Source: Campylobacterales bacterium (GTDB taxonomy: Bacteria > Campylobacterota > Campylobacteria > Campylobacterales > QNZT01). Taken from it: 64,000 nt of DNA. This document shows positions 7,941 to 63,424 of this stretch, in pieces. A program made the position numbers and the translations under genes. Under the pieces are notes generated by a model. It was not told the origin of the DNA. It ran no database searches and worked only from the letters and a program-made list of their open reading frames with translations. Where the stretch lies: positions 19,101 to 83,100 of the forward strand of contig JAJRSK010000064.1 of assembly GCA_024278835.1 (NCBI GenBank), written 5' to 3'. How positions within the stretch are numbered: position 1 is the stretch's first letter; each line of letters starts with the position of its first letter.

Positions 7941-7950
7941 GGAGCCTATC

Positions 7951-8706
7951 ATGATAAGAGTATTTCAACTTGGATTGGCGACACTACTTTTAAGCACGAG
8001 TGCGATAGCGTATGAAGCAGGACAGTTAAGCTTGGATGTTCCCAATGTTTTAAACAAAGGTGAGGGATCATTTACGATTCGTCACCGATTTTTTGGAAAA
8101 GCAGATGATACAGAAAAGTTTTTGGGGACGGATGATGGAGGCAATATTCACTTTATCCTCAAATATACCATGCTGGATAATCTACTTGTGAGCGTTGATC
8201 ATACGAGAGACCAGAGTGGCTATGGTGTGGGTATAGAGTATGGAGAGGATTTAAAAGCGTTTGGTAGTGTTGGGGTTCGTTTCAATAGTTTTAGTATTGA
8301 TGATGTGAGTTTTGATGCGCGACAACAAAGTTATTTTTTTAACACTTCTTATCAGACACCCAATATCAATGAACATGTACGACTGACTGCCAATGTCGGC
8401 TATGATGCTTACTATGAACATACCACTGCAGGAGTGGGGATAGATATCAATATGAAAAATACTCTTTCCTGGTTGACATTTACAGAGAATCTTTCACTTT
8501 TAGGGGAGTATTATCCTCAGATAGATAAAGTAGATGGTATCAGTGGCAAAAATGATGCTTATGCAATGGGTGTCAAGTTTCAAACATTTGGACATCACTT
8601 TGAAGTTTTACTCAGCAATAGCACCAATATGGATGCAAGGATGATGGCACTAGGTACAAATAGCGACGACCTGCATTTTGGGTTCAATATCAATAGAAAA
8701 TTTTAA
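7951..8706 (+). CDS. exported beta-barrel-like protein of unknown function
   Basis: Signal peptide MIRVFQLGLATLLLSTSAIA after an AAGGAG SD. Alternating beta-strand pattern with a C-terminal ...INRKF. The ATG lies inside a palindrome copy. Confidence 0.5.
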   Translation: MIRVFQLGLATLLLSTSAIAYEAGQLSLDVPNVLNKGEGSFTIRHRFFGKADDTEKFLGTDDGGNIHFILKYTMLDNLLVSVDHTRDQSGYGVGIEYGEDLKAFGSVGVRFNSFSIDDVSFDARQQSYFFNTSYQTPNINEHVRLTANVGYDAYYEHTTAGVGIDINMKNTLSWLTFTENLSLLGEYYPQIDKVDGISGKNDAYAMGVKFQTFGHHFEVLLSNSTNMDARMMALGTNSDDLHFGFNINRKF

Positions 8707-8720
8707 AAGGGACTATCTTG

Positions 8721-9233
8721 ATGAAAAAAATTACAACTATTTCCTTGCTTTGTGTAAACTTAGCTTTTGCAGGAAATATCACAACATTACCGCATTTAAC
8801 CATGCCAGACAACAACTTGACATTTGAGATGATAAAAGGGTATCAAGACTACAAGATAGTCGCCACACACTTTAGAACTGATAAAAATGAGTTACGATAC
8901 ATATTGGCAAATGAGATAGGATATAATGCTTTAAAAGAAAAAGAAAAAGTGATGCCTGGGGGCTCTAAAATAGTAAAGATAGGTTGGTCAGTCAAAAAGA
9001 TGCCTTCCTTTCCTACGGCACTTGAAGCAGATAAAATTCAAAGAGTGGAATATATGATAAAAGATTCTAAAAAATTTGATGCCGATGGGGATCACTGGGG
9101 ATATGCTAGATTTATCAAAAAGAACGGTAAGTTTGAGAGTTGGGATAAAGGGGTGCAAAGTTGTATCAGCTGTCATAGTGGTGTAAAGAAAAGTGATTAT
9201 CTCTTTACAAAGATGCAGGCAACATTTGAATAG
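8721..9233 (+). CDS. cytochrome P460 family protein
   Basis: About 170 aa, with a signal peptide and a single CXXCH (CISCH) close to the C-terminus, as in cytochrome P460. Confidence 0.6.
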   Translation: MKKITTISLLCVNLAFAGNITTLPHLTMPDNNLTFEMIKGYQDYKIVATHFRTDKNELRYILANEIGYNALKEKEKVMPGGSKIVKIGWSVKKMPSFPTALEADKIQRVEYMIKDSKKFDADGDHWGYARFIKKNGKFESWDKGVQSCISCHSGVKKSDYLFTKMQATFE

Positions 9234-9917
9234 ATGAAGTACAAAATCCTTATTGTAGAAGATGAAATCGAGATAGTCAATCTCATACGAAAACGCTTAG
9301 ATGAGCAAAAGTACGATGTTACGGTTGCCTATAGTGGTGATGAGGGGTTAAGACTGATTCAGAGGGAGTATTTTGATTTGCTCTCTTTGGATTTGATGTT
9401 GCCATCAGTTGATGGTCTGACCCTTTGTAAAGCGGTGCGAGAGAAAAATAAAAACTCTCTTATTGTTATCATCTCAGCTTTGGATTTGGAAGAGGAAAAA
9501 GAGAAGGCATATCGCTTAGGAGCAGACGACTATATTCCTAAGCCTTTTTCACCTAAATTTGTAGCACTAAAGATTAATTCACTCCTGCAAAGACGTTCTG
9601 AGATTAAGAGTGATGCGATGTATCTCTCACAAGATATCTATCAGGATTGTGACTTGAAGCGTTTTTATATCAAAAGCAATCCTCTTACTTTGACACCTAG
9701 TGAATATACTATCTTAGAGTGTTTATATGAGACACCCAAAAAAGTCTTCTCAAAAGAGGAATTATCACAAATACTATATAATGAAGATATAGGAAATATC
9801 GATAGAGATGGTATAGGGACGCATATCTATCAGTTGCGTAAAAAGATAGCAATGCTCACAGAACAAGAGATGATAAAAACAGTCAGAGGGATAGGGTATA
9901 CACTGTATGAAGATTAA
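9234..9917 (+). CDS. OmpR/PhoB-family response regulator
   Basis: REC domain (ILIVEDE..., DLLSLDLMLP, KPF) plus a winged-helix output domain (TVRGIGYTL). Confidence 0.9.
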   Translation: MKYKILIVEDEIEIVNLIRKRLDEQKYDVTVAYSGDEGLRLIQREYFDLLSLDLMLPSVDGLTLCKAVREKNKNSLIVIISALDLEEEKEKAYRLGADDYIPKPFSPKFVALKINSLLQRRSEIKSDAMYLSQDIYQDCDLKRFYIKSNPLTLTPSEYTILECLYETPKKVFSKEELSQILYNEDIGNIDRDGIGTHIYQLRKKIAMLTEQEMIKTVRGIGYTLYED

Positions 9918-61603: not shown

Positions 61604-61707
61604 ACAATATCCTGTTTTTTAAGTTTAAAATAATCTACTTTAAGTATAATTGCGCACCAATAAACCCATAGCTTGTTATCATATGCAAGCATCTTAAGGA
61701 AAAGAAA

Positions 61708-61908
61708 ATGAAAAAAGATATACACCCAGACTACATGACATGCCAAGTATCTTGTGCTTGTGGTAACTCTTTTGAGAGTAGATCAAACAAACCAGAGATG
61801 AGAATCGATATCTGTAACGAATGTCACCCATTTTTCACAGGAAGTGAGAAGATAGTGGATGCTGCAGGTAGAGTTGAGAAGTTTAAAGCTAAATATAACT
61901 TAAAATAA
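61708..61908 (+). CDS. rpmE: 50S ribosomal protein L31
   Basis: MKKDIHPDY..., a CxC...CxxCHPFFTG zinc ribbon, and 66 aa. Confidence 0.95.
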
Positions 61909-62715
61909 TTGCTACACTTCATTCCAACACCGATTGGAAATCTTGAAGACATTTCGCAGAGAAGTCTCAGACTTCTTGCGAATGCTACAACCGTCTTTTG
62001 TGAAGACACCCGTGTTACAAAACGACTTATTTCCCTTTTTAAAGAGCGTTACGAACTTGATTTTTTAGACAAAGAATTTATTTCTCTACATTCACACAAT
62101 GAAAAAGCTGTTTTAGAAAAACTCGATAGCTCTCTTTTTGAACAAGATGTTGTCTATCTTTCAGATGCGGGTATGCCAGCGGTGAGTGATCCAGGTTGTG
62201 AACTTGTGCGATACTGCCACTATCATGATATCACATATGAAGTCTTACCTGGTGCCAATGCAGCGCTTTTAGCGTATGCCGCTAGTGGGTTTTGTGAAAC
62301 ACAGTTTCTCTTTTTTGGATTTTTACCACATAAAGGCAATGATAGAAATAACGCTCTGACAAAAGCGCTCAATTCTGGATATGTCACCATTCTCTATGAA
62401 TCTCCTCATCGTATCGAAAAATTGATTGATGAGTTGGTCAAAAAAGCACCCCATAGAGAGATATTTCTCATCAAAGAAGCTACAAAAATGTATGAGAGGC
62501 ATTTTAAGGGTACTTCCCTACAAGTACAACATATGATAAAAAATCAAAATATTAAAGGCGAATGGGTAATAGTTTTAAATGCTTTAAAAAAAGAGTTTGG
62601 TGTCATCACGGTTGAGGATATTATAAGCCTTGATATTCCCAAAAAACAAGCTTCAAAACTCATCGCAAAAATCACAGGAAAATCCCCAAAAGAATGCTAT
62701 AACGACTTGCTTTAA
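61909..62715 (+). CDS. rsmI: 16S rRNA (cytidine1402-2'-O)-methyltransferase
   Basis: LHFIPTPIGNLEDISQRSLRLL...VFCEDTRVTKRL and LSDAGMPAVSDPG are tetrapyrrole-methylase-fold RsmI signatures. TTG start. Confidence 0.85.
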   Translation: MLHFIPTPIGNLEDISQRSLRLLANATTVFCEDTRVTKRLISLFKERYELDFLDKEFISLHSHNEKAVLEKLDSSLFEQDVVYLSDAGMPAVSDPGCELVRYCHYHDITYEVLPGANAALLAYAASGFCETQFLFFGFLPHKGNDRNNALTKALNSGYVTILYESPHRIEKLIDELVKKAPHREIFLIKEATKMYERHFKGTSLQVQHMIKNQNIKGEWVIVLNALKKEFGVITVEDIISLDIPKKQASKLIAKITGKSPKECYNDLL

Positions 62716-62749
62716 CGCTAGGTTAACTTTGTTTTAGTATCATACTATC

Positions 62750-63424
62750 ATGATAGTATATGGCAAACAAATATTTTTTTATATAGCGGAAAAACACCCT
62801 GAGTTGATTGAAGAAATTTACCTAGCCAAAGAGTTAGATAAAAAGCTTTTTTCTAAAGTAAATGGTCTTGGCAAAAAGATTATTAAACTAGACACGATGA
62901 AAGCACAGAGCTTGGCACGTGGGGGAAATCACCAAGGTTTTCTTTTAAAGATAAAGTATATTGAGTATGCAGATATCCAAGATTTGAAAAAAGAGGATTT
63001 TTTACTTGTCTTGGTGGGACTCACTGATGTGGGAAATATCGGTGCAATCATCCGTAGTGCGTATGCTTTGGGTGTAAAAGGTATCGTTATATCTGGAACA
63101 AAAATAAATTTAGAAGGTATTGTTAGAAGTAGTGTCGGCTCCTTGCTTGACATGCCTGTAGCACTTTTTTCTGATACAGCTACACTAGTCAATGAACTCA
63201 AACAACTAGGGTTTAAAACTTACGCAGCAGATATGAATGGTGAAGATGTGCGAGATGTGACATTTGCTGGTAAAAAAGTTTTATTCTTAGGCTCTGAAGG
63301 CGCGGGTTTACCAAACCGTATCATAAAAGCCTGTGATACAAAGATAAAAATAGCGATGGACAATGAGTTCGACTCATTAAACGTGAGTGCTGCAGCCGCG
63401 ATATTATGTGATAGGATGAGATAA
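62750..63424 (+). CDS. rlmB: SpoU/TrmH-family RNA 2'-O-methyltransferase (RlmB-like)
   Basis: An N-terminal substrate-binding segment and the SPOUT motifs DVGNIGAIIRSA, LFLGSEGAGL and SLNVSAAAAI. Confidence 0.7.
   Translation: MIVYGKQIFFYIAEKHPELIEEIYLAKELDKKLFSKVNGLGKKIIKLDTMKAQSLARGGNHQGFLLKIKYIEYADIQDLKKEDFLLVLVGLTDVGNIGAIIRSAYALGVKGIVISGTKINLEGIVRSSVGSLLDMPVALFSDTATLVNELKQLGFKTYAADMNGEDVRDVTFAGKKVLFLGSEGAGLPNRIIKACDTKIKIAMDNEFDSLNVSAAAAILCDRMR

Follow-up and report, generated by a model that had tools for sequence, protein, structure and literature searches.

The highly iterated palindrome HIP1 (GCGATCGC) and the alternate highly iterated palindromes (HIPs) of cyanobacteria are short palindromes, over-represented tens- to hundreds-fold and present at about one copy per kb (PMC4390886, PMC5861425). 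Their copies are isolated, lack conserved flanks and occur both within and between genes; sites are conserved between species, one-off variants are concentrated at the terminal positions, the inner core shows no enrichment by itself, and one or more orphan methyltransferases act on an internal sub-site. Here we describe a ten-base, CATG-centred palindrome, TATCATGATA, in a 64-kb stretch of DNA from a Campylobacterales bacterium (contig JAJRSK010000064.1 of assembly GCA_024278835.1; hereafter the window). It behaves like HIP1 in every respect compared, the specificity of the companion methyltransferase being predicted from the gene next to a homolog, and is best read as a highly iterated palindrome of the HIP1 type outside the cyanobacteria. 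The two differ in host (cyanobacteria versus Campylobacterota), in composition (HIP1 is a GC-rich 8-mer centred on GATC, whereas the unit containing TATCATGATA is an AT-rich 10-12-mer centred on CATG, and GATC is itself strongly avoided in the window), in associated enzyme (here a D12-class adenine methyltransferase of the NlaIII/HpyI family) and in range (most of a phylum for HIP1, one genus-level clade for TATCATGATA).

Three further systems invite comparison. The uptake signal sequences (USS) of Pasteurellaceae and the DNA uptake sequences (DUS) of Neisseriaceae share with TATCATGATA a similar density, many genic copies in particular frames, inflated tripeptides, a location at poorly conserved residues and scarcity in recently acquired DNA (PMC2817400). 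Like them, TATCATGATA has a density near one copy per kb, a surplus of one-mismatch forms and an impact on tripeptides, although this impact is larger here (~10-fold for Ile-Met-Ile versus ~2-fold for USS/DUS). USS and DUS are, however, asymmetric motifs found in both orientations, whereas TATCATGATA is a perfect palindrome; they do not need methylation, and competence and biased uptake have been demonstrated for them. In Campylobacter jejuni, a member of the same phylum, recognition of the short palindrome RAATTY depends on its adenine methylation by a resident orphan-like methyltransferase (PMC8468864, 10.1101/2024.09.10.611283); RAATTY is a 6-mer that is not known as hyper-abundant, and an effect of the decamer on uptake would be by analogy with it. 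Finally, the iceA-hpyIM/NlaIII systems have a CATG centre and a homologous methyltransferase (~66% identity to the copy in locus L201, which lies by an ICEA-family gene), but the gene of the motif-bearing clade is an orphan in a conserved chromosomal setting, and CATG and TCATGA are unenriched outside the motif.

The window contains 54 exact copies of TATCATGATA, compared to a mean of 0.25 and a maximum of 2 in dinucleotide-preserving shuffles. Enrichment over an order-3 Markov model was 65-fold in a pooled clade set (the window plus loci L193, L194 and L101 of its relatives) and 115-fold in loci of CAZCUH and JANTGR, which were selected for close motif pairs; the motif is thus a perfect palindrome with the >10-fold over-representation relative to composition that characterizes HIPs. 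A maximal-order Markov expectation was uninformative, since the motif itself makes up most occurrences of the sub-words used. Scans with Rfam and for tRNAs gave no matches in the window, and a search of one literature library found neither a report of the decamer as a genomic motif nor an uptake sequence reported for these genera.

The bases flanking the copies in the window are biased: the preceding base is C in 35 of 54 and the following base is G in 41 of 54. This extends the unit to Y-TATCATGATA-R (Y-TA-TCATGA-TA-R), whose commonest form is the 12-base palindrome CTATCATGATAG, and the same Y/R bias is present in copies that encode Ile-Met-Ile, copies that encode Tyr-His-Asp, copies at gene starts and intergenic copies. 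Outside these two positions there is no sequence conservation around copies. Imperfect copies are also present (23 with one mismatch and 90 with two). Variants were tallied in 119 kb of the window's clade and, as a second set, in 179 kb of CAZCUH plus JANTGR. Single-mismatch variants were over-represented only at positions 1/10 (observed/expected ratio, O/E, 4.6 and 6.4 in the two sets) and 2/9 (2.5 and 6.1), and were at background at positions 3-8, TCATGA (0.4-1.7). TCATGA outside the motif occurs 20 times in the window, approximately chance level, and CATG shows no enrichment (O/E 0.89). A bias of variants to the outer positions, combined with a core that is unenriched alone, is the pattern that Elhai described for HIP1 and its CGATCG core (PMC4390886).

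Spacing of copies is Poisson-like (coefficient of variation, CV, 0.99), and no regular or periodic spacing was found within the 64 kb; pairs less than 150 bases apart are in slight excess (11 versus 6.3 expected), and the longest stretch without the motif (40523-45714) spans three pilin paralogs. The flanks, the spacing and the substitution origin described below mark the copies as dispersed single sites outside any longer repeat or mobile element.

An initial annotation of the window had proposed that the motif is imposed on proteins at the DNA level, and had asked, among other things, whether the codons used are always the same and whether the encoded residues vary in orthologs. Codons were examined in a non-overlapping set of open reading frames (ORFs) that covers 94% of the window and in which each copy was placed. 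Within genes the palindrome reads as (T)ATC-ATG-ATA, encoding Ile-Met-Ile (IMI), or as TAT-CAT-GAT, encoding Tyr-His-Asp (YHD). All 38 IMI tripeptides in the set are written ATC-ATG-ATA, where codon usage predicts ~16%, and all 15 YHD tripeptides are written TAT-CAT-GAT, where it predicts ~38%. These are the two most over-represented tripeptides: amino-acid composition predicts 3.6 IMI and 0.95 YHD, so that IMI exceeds expectation ~10-fold. When synonymous codons were shuffled with the proteins left unchanged, 5.5 +/- 2.1 copies remained, compared to 49 observed in ORFs.

Orthologs could be compared at ~16 sites with homologs in motif-free genomes (three in the DbpA helicase gene and 13 in other genes). 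In helicase relatives at ≤63% identity, the YHD or IMI of the window is replaced by YKE, YKK, YTQ or FVK (site 20111), by LHD, VHD, QHD, EHE or TES (site 19550), and by FII, VVI, FKM, KML or ITL (site 19083). The 13 sites in other host genes align with IIG, LII, ILL, FMI, LYV, TDV, IFV, LDV and VMI. These positions are variable and mostly hydrophobic, as the initial annotation had anticipated, and no indels occur at any compared site, which indicates that sites arose by point substitution; for example, AAT TTC ATA ATA became TCT ATC ATG ATA in the helicase gene. Among outgroup proteins in the helicase alignment, IMI is found in one only (P0019) and YHD only in P0020 and loci L103-L106. The latter were retrieved with the peptide EQLGYHDM, so their YHD is an ascertainment effect, and in L103, L104 and L106 its codons differ from the motif (TAC CAT GAC, TAT CAC GAT). 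Codon exclusivity, the synonymous shuffle and the variable outgroup residues together uphold the proposal: the signal resides in the DNA and is impressed on the encoded proteins, as it is for HIP1.

Once formed, sites are conserved between species beyond background. Compared to L193 (86.6% nucleotide identity), 13 of 18 motif sites are kept versus 31.6% of background 10-mers; compared to L194 (73.7% identity), seven of eight are kept versus 6.7% (binomial, ~5e-8); and in three metagenome relatives, 7 of 11 are kept versus 9.9%, these comparisons being mutually non-independent. Turnover is also evident, since relatives carry copies where the window has the one-mismatch forms CATCATGATA or TATCATGATG. 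The motif is therefore created by point substitutions, in and between genes, where these are tolerated, and is then kept better than its surroundings.

We next consider the range of the motif. Its density is 0.5-0.9 per kb in loci chosen independently of it (the window, L193, L194, L204, L202 and L101), and the same range holds in every stretch of the clade examined (~0.3 Mb from at least six assemblies). An independent assembly, L001 (run SRR32233993), is 99.9% identical to window positions 49892-59608 and shares all eight copies found there. Among helicase homologs, a sharply bounded group spans 74-95% identity, the next being ≤63% identical, and relatives at 80-95% identity are motif-rich:

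L193, helicase identity 95%, 0.80 copies per kb
L194, helicase identity 85%, 0.66 copies per kb
L195, helicase identity 75%, 0.05 copies per kb (1 copy in 21 kb)
L196 and L197, helicase identity 61%, no copies

Among 77 metagenome loci of more distant helicase relatives, 74 (786 kb) had no copy and three had one each. A scan for double motifs, with one genome per species, recovered mainly the metagenome-assembled genomes (MAGs) CAZCUH01 and JANTGR01, labelled Sulfurospirillum, and one labelled Sulfurovum. An interpretation in which these two distant lineages share the motif was dropped; CAZCUH has a methyltransferase ortholog (81% identity) and neighbouring genes in common with the window's relatives, which places them in a single clade. 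The motif is thus specific to a single clade of about genus rank within the uncultured Campylobacterales, the MAGs of which bear the label Sulfurospirillum sp. or Sulfurovum sp. Locus L044, considered as a syntenic relative, has a single gene in common with the window and none of its motif sites.

Where copies were dense in other phyla or on viral contigs, they proved to be tandem or iteron-like repeats with conserved flanks of their own, and scans of viral sequences found no phage with dispersed copies. Two Clostridia/Eubacteriales MAGs (L047 2456-3407 and L095 5466-6087) contain arrays in which a longer palindrome, TTTTGATATCATGATATCAAAA, recurs every 60-190 bases; these resemble operator or iteron arrays and have no relation to the dispersed motif. 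In viral contigs L182, L186, L226 and L233, 12-20 decamer copies are clustered in tandem or near-tandem repeats (period ~171 bases in L226 and L233), with flanks unlike those of the Campylobacterales motif.

The motif-bearing clade encodes an orphan methyltransferase that is a candidate for modifying the motif. Locus L194 contains the gene for a D12-class adenine methyltransferase, P0121, with orthologs (mutual identity 78-84%) in L204 (from L193's assembly), L202 (CAZCUH010000064.1), L203 and L200. L200 comes from run SRR32233993, the source of L001, so that the enzyme is very likely present in the window's own organism. None of the orthologs has a nuclease neighbour, and several share the neighbours FAA hydrolase, Exo_endo_phos and SelO. 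The next homologs, ≤66% identical, are widespread; one of them, in L201 (~66%), directly follows an ICEA-family (NlaIII-like endonuclease) gene and an HTH gene, which is the arrangement of the CATG-specific iceA/NlaIII-hpyIM system. The iceA1 gene is related to NlaIII, and hpyIM encodes a CATG-specific methyltransferase (PMC2749054). We infer from this neighbourhood that the clade keeps an orphan enzyme of the CATG (NlaIII/HpyI) family with predicted CATG specificity. Its gene was found in five of five motif-bearing assemblies checked, with the specificity taken from the ICEA neighbour of the 66% homolog. Alignment of in-clade and outgroup methyltransferases revealed only six fixed differences and no clue to specificity.

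The window also encodes a restriction-modification (R-M) pair, an m5C methyltransferase (20614-21924) and a BglII-like endonuclease (21927-22574), in a variable defence slot between a menaquinone-synthesis (VitK2_biosynth) gene and dbpA:

window 20200-22590, m5C methyltransferase and BglII-like endonuclease
L193 8363-9685, AIPR abortive-infection gene, GC 29%
L194 4730-9540, type III R-M
L101 3893-6874, small ORFs

This pair was rejected as the cause of the motif, being absent at the syntenic slot in the motif-bearing L193, L194 and L101. The slot is copy-poor (4 copies in ~13.7 kb), which fits slow accumulation of the motif after DNA acquisition. BglII-family endonucleases target xGATCx sites. 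GATC is among the avoided words in the window (O/E 0.14; GGCC 0.13, CCGG 0.31) and is missing from the R-M genes themselves, and its avoidance points to an xGATCx target for the pair. The O/E of GATC is 0.06-0.25 in most motif-bearing genomes, 0.59 in JANTGR, and 0.58-1.1 in motif-free relatives. The word survey, which covered the window, L193, L194, L101, L044 and the CAZCUH loci, also revealed that ACGT is almost absent from the CAZCUH loci (O/E 0.01); it is likewise almost absent from L195. L195 (GCA_054011135.1), the closest motif-poor relative, avoids CATG (O/E 0.54), which would fit active CATG restriction there, unlike the orphan methyltransferase of the motif-rich clade.

What maintains so many copies? 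On balance, we consider it somewhat more likely than not that the decamer is a HIP-type palindrome that acts at the DNA level and in methylated form; a tag for transformation or recombination is the role we favour, more tentatively. Since its strict TCATGA core contains CATG, which the NlaIII/HpyI family recognizes, and the clade's methyltransferase is assigned to that family, the motif would be expected to act methylated. The orphan enzyme would methylate the palindrome and mark 'self' DNA; the methylated palindrome would raise the chance of uptake or recombination during natural transformation; and molecular drive would in turn favour variants closer to the motif, raising the density to about one copy per kb. 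There are precedents. In Synechococcus PCC 7002, transformation is increased by methylated HIP1 (Kamoku and Nielsen 2024, 10.1101/2024.09.10.611283), a correlation links the abundance of HIP1 to DNA-uptake genes (Rodriguez-Cruz et al. 2026, 10.64898/2026.06.24.733823), uptake in C. jejuni is limited to DNA bearing its own methylation mark (PMC8468864), and uptake sequences have a similar density and similar effects on the proteome (PMC2817400). The scarcity of copies in the defence slot also supports a transformation tag. The pilus genes in the window belong to an MSHA-type cluster only and are not specific evidence of competence. Taken alone, the proposition that the methylated palindrome favours its DNA in transformation and so accumulates by molecular drive is a tentative one, built on these analogies. 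More tentative still, by the same analogies, is the view that the decamer may be a methylation-dependent self-recognition sequence, with the orphan CATG-family methyltransferase as its writer and a 10-12 bp palindrome as the unit that is read.

Several observations weigh against this explanation. Conservation of sites is compatible with selection and with persistent drive alike. The specificity of the methyltransferase is read from the neighbour of a 66% homolog; homologs at 66% identity occur in motif-free L198 (orphan-looking) and L201, with no copies in 21 kb each, so the enzyme is not sufficient for the motif; and co-occurrence of motif and enzyme is confounded with phylogeny because the motif-bearing genomes form a single clade. 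A CATG enzyme leaves the strictness of positions 3/8 and the 10-12 bp unit unexplained. Known uptake sequences (DUS, USS) are not palindromic, and the Poisson-like spacing (CV 0.99) gives no sign of selection for even spacing.

An alternative that we regard as rather unlikely is that the motif is a functionless by-product of methylation-directed repair, as in Elhai's ratchet, in which the core is marked by a resident methyltransferase and methyl-dependent nicking or repair fixes new mutations that extend a site, up to about 1/kb. As this model predicts, the motif is a palindrome with a strict core and one-off variants at its outer positions only (PMC4390886), the core alone is not over-represented outside the motif, the clade conserves an orphan methyltransferase, and density is near one copy per kb. 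Against the ratchet, site-creating changes include several substitution types at the outer positions (TTC ATA ATA to ATC ATG ATA, and CTT or TTA CAT GAT to TAT CAT GAT), and homologous methyltransferases are present in motif-free genomes. Helicobacter and Campylobacter are not known to possess MutS1/MutL/MutH-type repair. Sites are also strongly conserved here, as in HIP1, for which Xu et al. 2018 (PMC5861425) concluded that conservation favours selection over replenishment.

Selection could instead maintain an array of sites for a hypothetical dimeric DNA-binding protein with a nucleoid-structural, segregation or replication-linked role, which we judge decidedly unlikely. A 10-12 bp palindrome has the typical size of a dimer site and is longer than most methyltransferase sites, its sites are strongly conserved between species, and a role connected with the nucleoid has been suggested for HIP1 by Xu et al. 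(PMC5861425). However, spacing is neither periodic nor even within the 64-kb window. Chromosomal palindromes such as the parS, matS, SlmA and Noc sites number tens per genome, not thousands.

The initial annotation had also read the motif as bound up with genes themselves: restricted to coding sequence, limited to two frames and used to supply start and stop codons. This reading is highly improbable, although a recount of the window reproduced the figures behind it. Forty-one of the 54 copies are in the (T)ATC-ATG-ATA phase (35 internal IMI and six at gene starts), 12 are in the TAT-CAT-GAT phase, and one, at 22567, is in the TCA-TGA phase, where its TGA (22572-22574) ends the restriction endonuclease gene, BglII-type by Pfam. 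Two one-mismatch copies at gene boundaries, CATCATGATA at an ATGA overlap and TATCATGATG at the trxC start, were confirmed as well. The copies in the window and these two one-mismatch forms are listed below, with gene names resting on Pfam where supported; of the gene names in the initial annotation, only 'PKD lipoprotein' (34142-34645) lacked such support.

637..646, IMI phase, TetR-like gene 350-973
3268..3277, YHD phase, GntR/aminotransferase gene 2864-4243 (minus strand)
4623..4632, IMI phase, pyridoxamine-oxidase-like gene 4330-4923
7084..7093, YHD phase, S-adenosylmethionine methyltransferase gene 6742-7572
7947..7956, central ATG 7951 is the likely start of a DUF5777 beta-barrel gene; AAGGAG upstream; alternative GTG 7918
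10692..10701, IMI phase, histidine kinase 9907-10908; L193 has TATCATCATA
11380..11389, IMI phase, GyrI-like gene 10921-11850 (minus strand)
13248..13257, central ATG on the minus strand is the dsbD start, gene 11886-13253; lost in L193
13363..13372, IMI phase, MFS transporter 13312-14523 (minus strand)
13621..13630, IMI phase, same MFS transporter 13312-14523 (minus strand)
14601..14610, IMI phase, ORF 14523-15044 (minus strand)
15788..15797, IMI phase, MscS-like channel 15062-16861 (minus strand)
17653..17662, YHD phase, CHAD gene 16945-18348
17776..17785, YHD phase, same CHAD gene 16945-18348
18795..18804, IMI phase, ORF 18345-18827 (minus strand)
19083..19092, IMI phase, DbpA helicase 18843-20183 (minus strand); kept in L098, L113, L193 and L194
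19550..19559, YHD phase, DbpA helicase 18843-20183 (minus strand)
20111..20120, YHD phase, DbpA helicase 18843-20183 (minus strand)
21348..21357, IMI phase, m5C DNA methyltransferase 20614-21924 (accessory R-M island)
22567..22576, stop phase, TGA 22572-22574 ends BglII-like endonuclease ORF 21927-22574
24192..24201, central ATG 24196 is the CPXCG gene start; absent in L101
24324..24333, IMI phase, CPXCG gene; kept in L101
25615..25624, central ATG on the minus strand is the DUF2062 gene start, 25132-25620; absent in L101
26082..26091, one-mismatch copy TATCATGATG, trxC start on the minus strand, 26087; perfect in L193 and L101
29274..29283, IMI phase, miaA 29016-29912 (minus strand)
29447..29456, YHD phase, miaA 29016-29912 (minus strand)
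29786..29795, YHD phase, miaA 29016-29912 (minus strand)
30612..30621, IMI phase, NosL-like gene 29958-30647 (minus strand), N-terminal hydrophobic segment
33417..33426, IMI phase, OMP beta-barrel gene 32881-33849
34138..34147, central ATG 34142 is the likely start of an ORF ending at 34645; AAGGAG upstream; alternative ATG 34073
35905..35914, IMI phase, ORF 35603-36130
36123..36132, one-mismatch copy CATCATGATA, ATGA stop/start overlap 36127-36130
36986..36995, IMI phase, ORF 36627-37331
40271..40280, IMI phase, ORF 40128-40877, first of four copies in the gene
40361..40370, IMI phase, ORF 40128-40877
40445..40454, IMI phase, ORF 40128-40877
40514..40523, IMI phase, ORF 40128-40877
45714..45723, IMI phase, T2SS-F-like gene 45633-46874 (minus strand)
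46308..46317, IMI phase, T2SS-F-like gene 45633-46874 (minus strand)
47051..47060, IMI phase, MshE-type ATPase 46871-48541 (minus strand)
49183..49192, IMI phase, ORF 48721-49341 (minus strand)
49237..49246, IMI phase, ORF 48721-49341 (minus strand)
51849..51858, YHD phase, ORF 51589-52008 (minus strand)
51970..51979, IMI phase, ORF 51589-52008 (minus strand)
52551..52560, IMI phase, ORF 52005-52640 (minus strand)
54061..54070, YHD phase, ORF 52637-54121 (minus strand)
54134..54143, IMI phase, ORF 54125-54589 (minus strand)
57178..57187, IMI phase, ORF 56569-58479 (minus strand)
57304..57313, IMI phase, ORF 56569-58479 (minus strand)
57505..57514, IMI phase, ORF 56569-58479 (minus strand)
60835..60844, IMI phase, ORF 60467-60883
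61049..61058, IMI phase, RsmE-like gene 60867-61529
61065..61074, YHD phase, RsmE-like gene 60867-61529; 16 bases past copy 61049
61388..61397, IMI phase, RsmE-like gene 60867-61529
62221..62230, YHD phase, TP_methylase gene 61909-62715
62746..62755, central ATG 62750 is the SpoU/RlmB-like gene start

The two-frame lock needs no special explanation, since the third phase reads TGA on both strands and only two phases are therefore possible inside genes; copies in the stop phase (one in the window and six in the CAZCUH and JANTGR loci) lie at gene ends. Supply of start codons is likewise what Met codons in general would give. The six start-codon copies (ATG at 7951, 13253 on the minus strand, 24196, 25620 on the minus strand, 34142 and 62750) all stand, with two of them, 7951 and 34142, hinging on the choice of an AAGGAG-preceded ATG over an upstream GTG or ATG. 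They make up 15% of IMI-phase copies (6/41), compared to 51 starts among 517 in-frame ATG codons (~10%); the corresponding fractions are 7/63 (11%) versus 90/917 in the pooled clade and 8/85 versus 120/1609 in the CAZCUH and JANTGR loci. The motif sits on ~7% of all Met codons, initiators included. Start-codon copies are also among the least conserved, those at 13248, 24192 and 25615 being lost in L193 or L101.

The claim that no copy lies wholly in intergenic DNA is correct for the window, but it does not extend to relatives. Non-coding DNA makes up ~6% of the window, so that 3-4 intergenic copies are expected and the probability of finding none is ~0.035-0.055. When depletion was sought in loci of related genomes, intergenic copies were found at the expected rate or above: 4 of 90 in the pooled clade versus 5.5% of the DNA (the four being from L193, L194 and L101), and 26 of 174 in the CAZCUH and JANTGR MAG loci versus 6.4% of the DNA, an enrichment. 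Numerous intergenic copies, which the initial annotation had itself named as evidence against its reading, are thus present in related genomes. The gene-tied reading is thus left with the absence of intergenic copies from one window and with the six or seven copies on gene boundaries there. The restriction to two phases, the few copies at start or stop codons and the absence of intergenic copies from the window are side effects of simple constraints. The ratio of IMI to YHD copies also differs among genomes, from 2.9 to 1 in the window's relatives to 1.5 to 1 in the MAGs.

By an informal count, 13 of the 54 copies fall no more than 100 bases from a gene start, compared to ~7 expected. Several of these are in N-terminal hydrophobic segments (LTAIMIGSL, TTAIMIALS, LFTIMIAHA), which fits a tolerance of signal or membrane helices for Ile-Met-Ile.

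The chance that the copies reflect protein-level selection for Ile-Met-Ile and Tyr-His-Asp, the footprint of a mobile element or an assembly artefact is close to negligible: the raw abundance of the two tripeptides is all that speaks for it, against exclusive codon use, a synonymous shuffle that falls short of the count, intergenic copies with the same flanks, the lack of conservation beyond the +/-1 positions, an origin by substitution without indels, and the same copies in the independent assembly L001.

Two other features of the window deserve mention. An in-frame TAG (33847-33849) divides an OmpA-family gene in two, with the beta-barrel and TSP3 repeats in 32881-33849 and the OmpA domain in 33853-34131, whereas its paralog at 27690-28901 has all three parts in one ORF; the split may represent a pseudogene, a sequencing error or read-through. 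Positions 43551-60412 form an MSHA-type type IV pilus cluster, with three tandem pilin paralogs, a T2SS-F gene, an MshE ATPase, an AAA protein, a secretin, minor pilins and two large Laminin_G_3 proteins.

For thirty years HIP1 has stood as a puzzle of cyanobacterial biology, and its experimental tie to methylation-dependent transformation is recent. The decamer provides an independent HIP-type case, with another sequence, another phylum and another methyltransferase family but the same statistical anatomy, which suggests a general origin of highly iterated palindromes in some interplay of orphan methyltransferases with DNA uptake, repair or recombination. It also illustrates how a DNA-level signal can reshape a proteome, with ~7% of Met codons inside the motif and IMI raised ~10-fold. 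The clade offers a sharp natural contrast, in that relatives with at least 80% helicase identity are motif-rich and one at 75% has almost no copies; a comparison of gene content across this boundary could identify the reader of the motif. If the decamer is a methylation-dependent self-recognition sequence, it would be the first HIP-type system outside the cyanobacteria, and it would link HIP1, the DUS and USS uptake sequences and the methyl-RAATTY discrimination of C. jejuni, which have so far stood apart.

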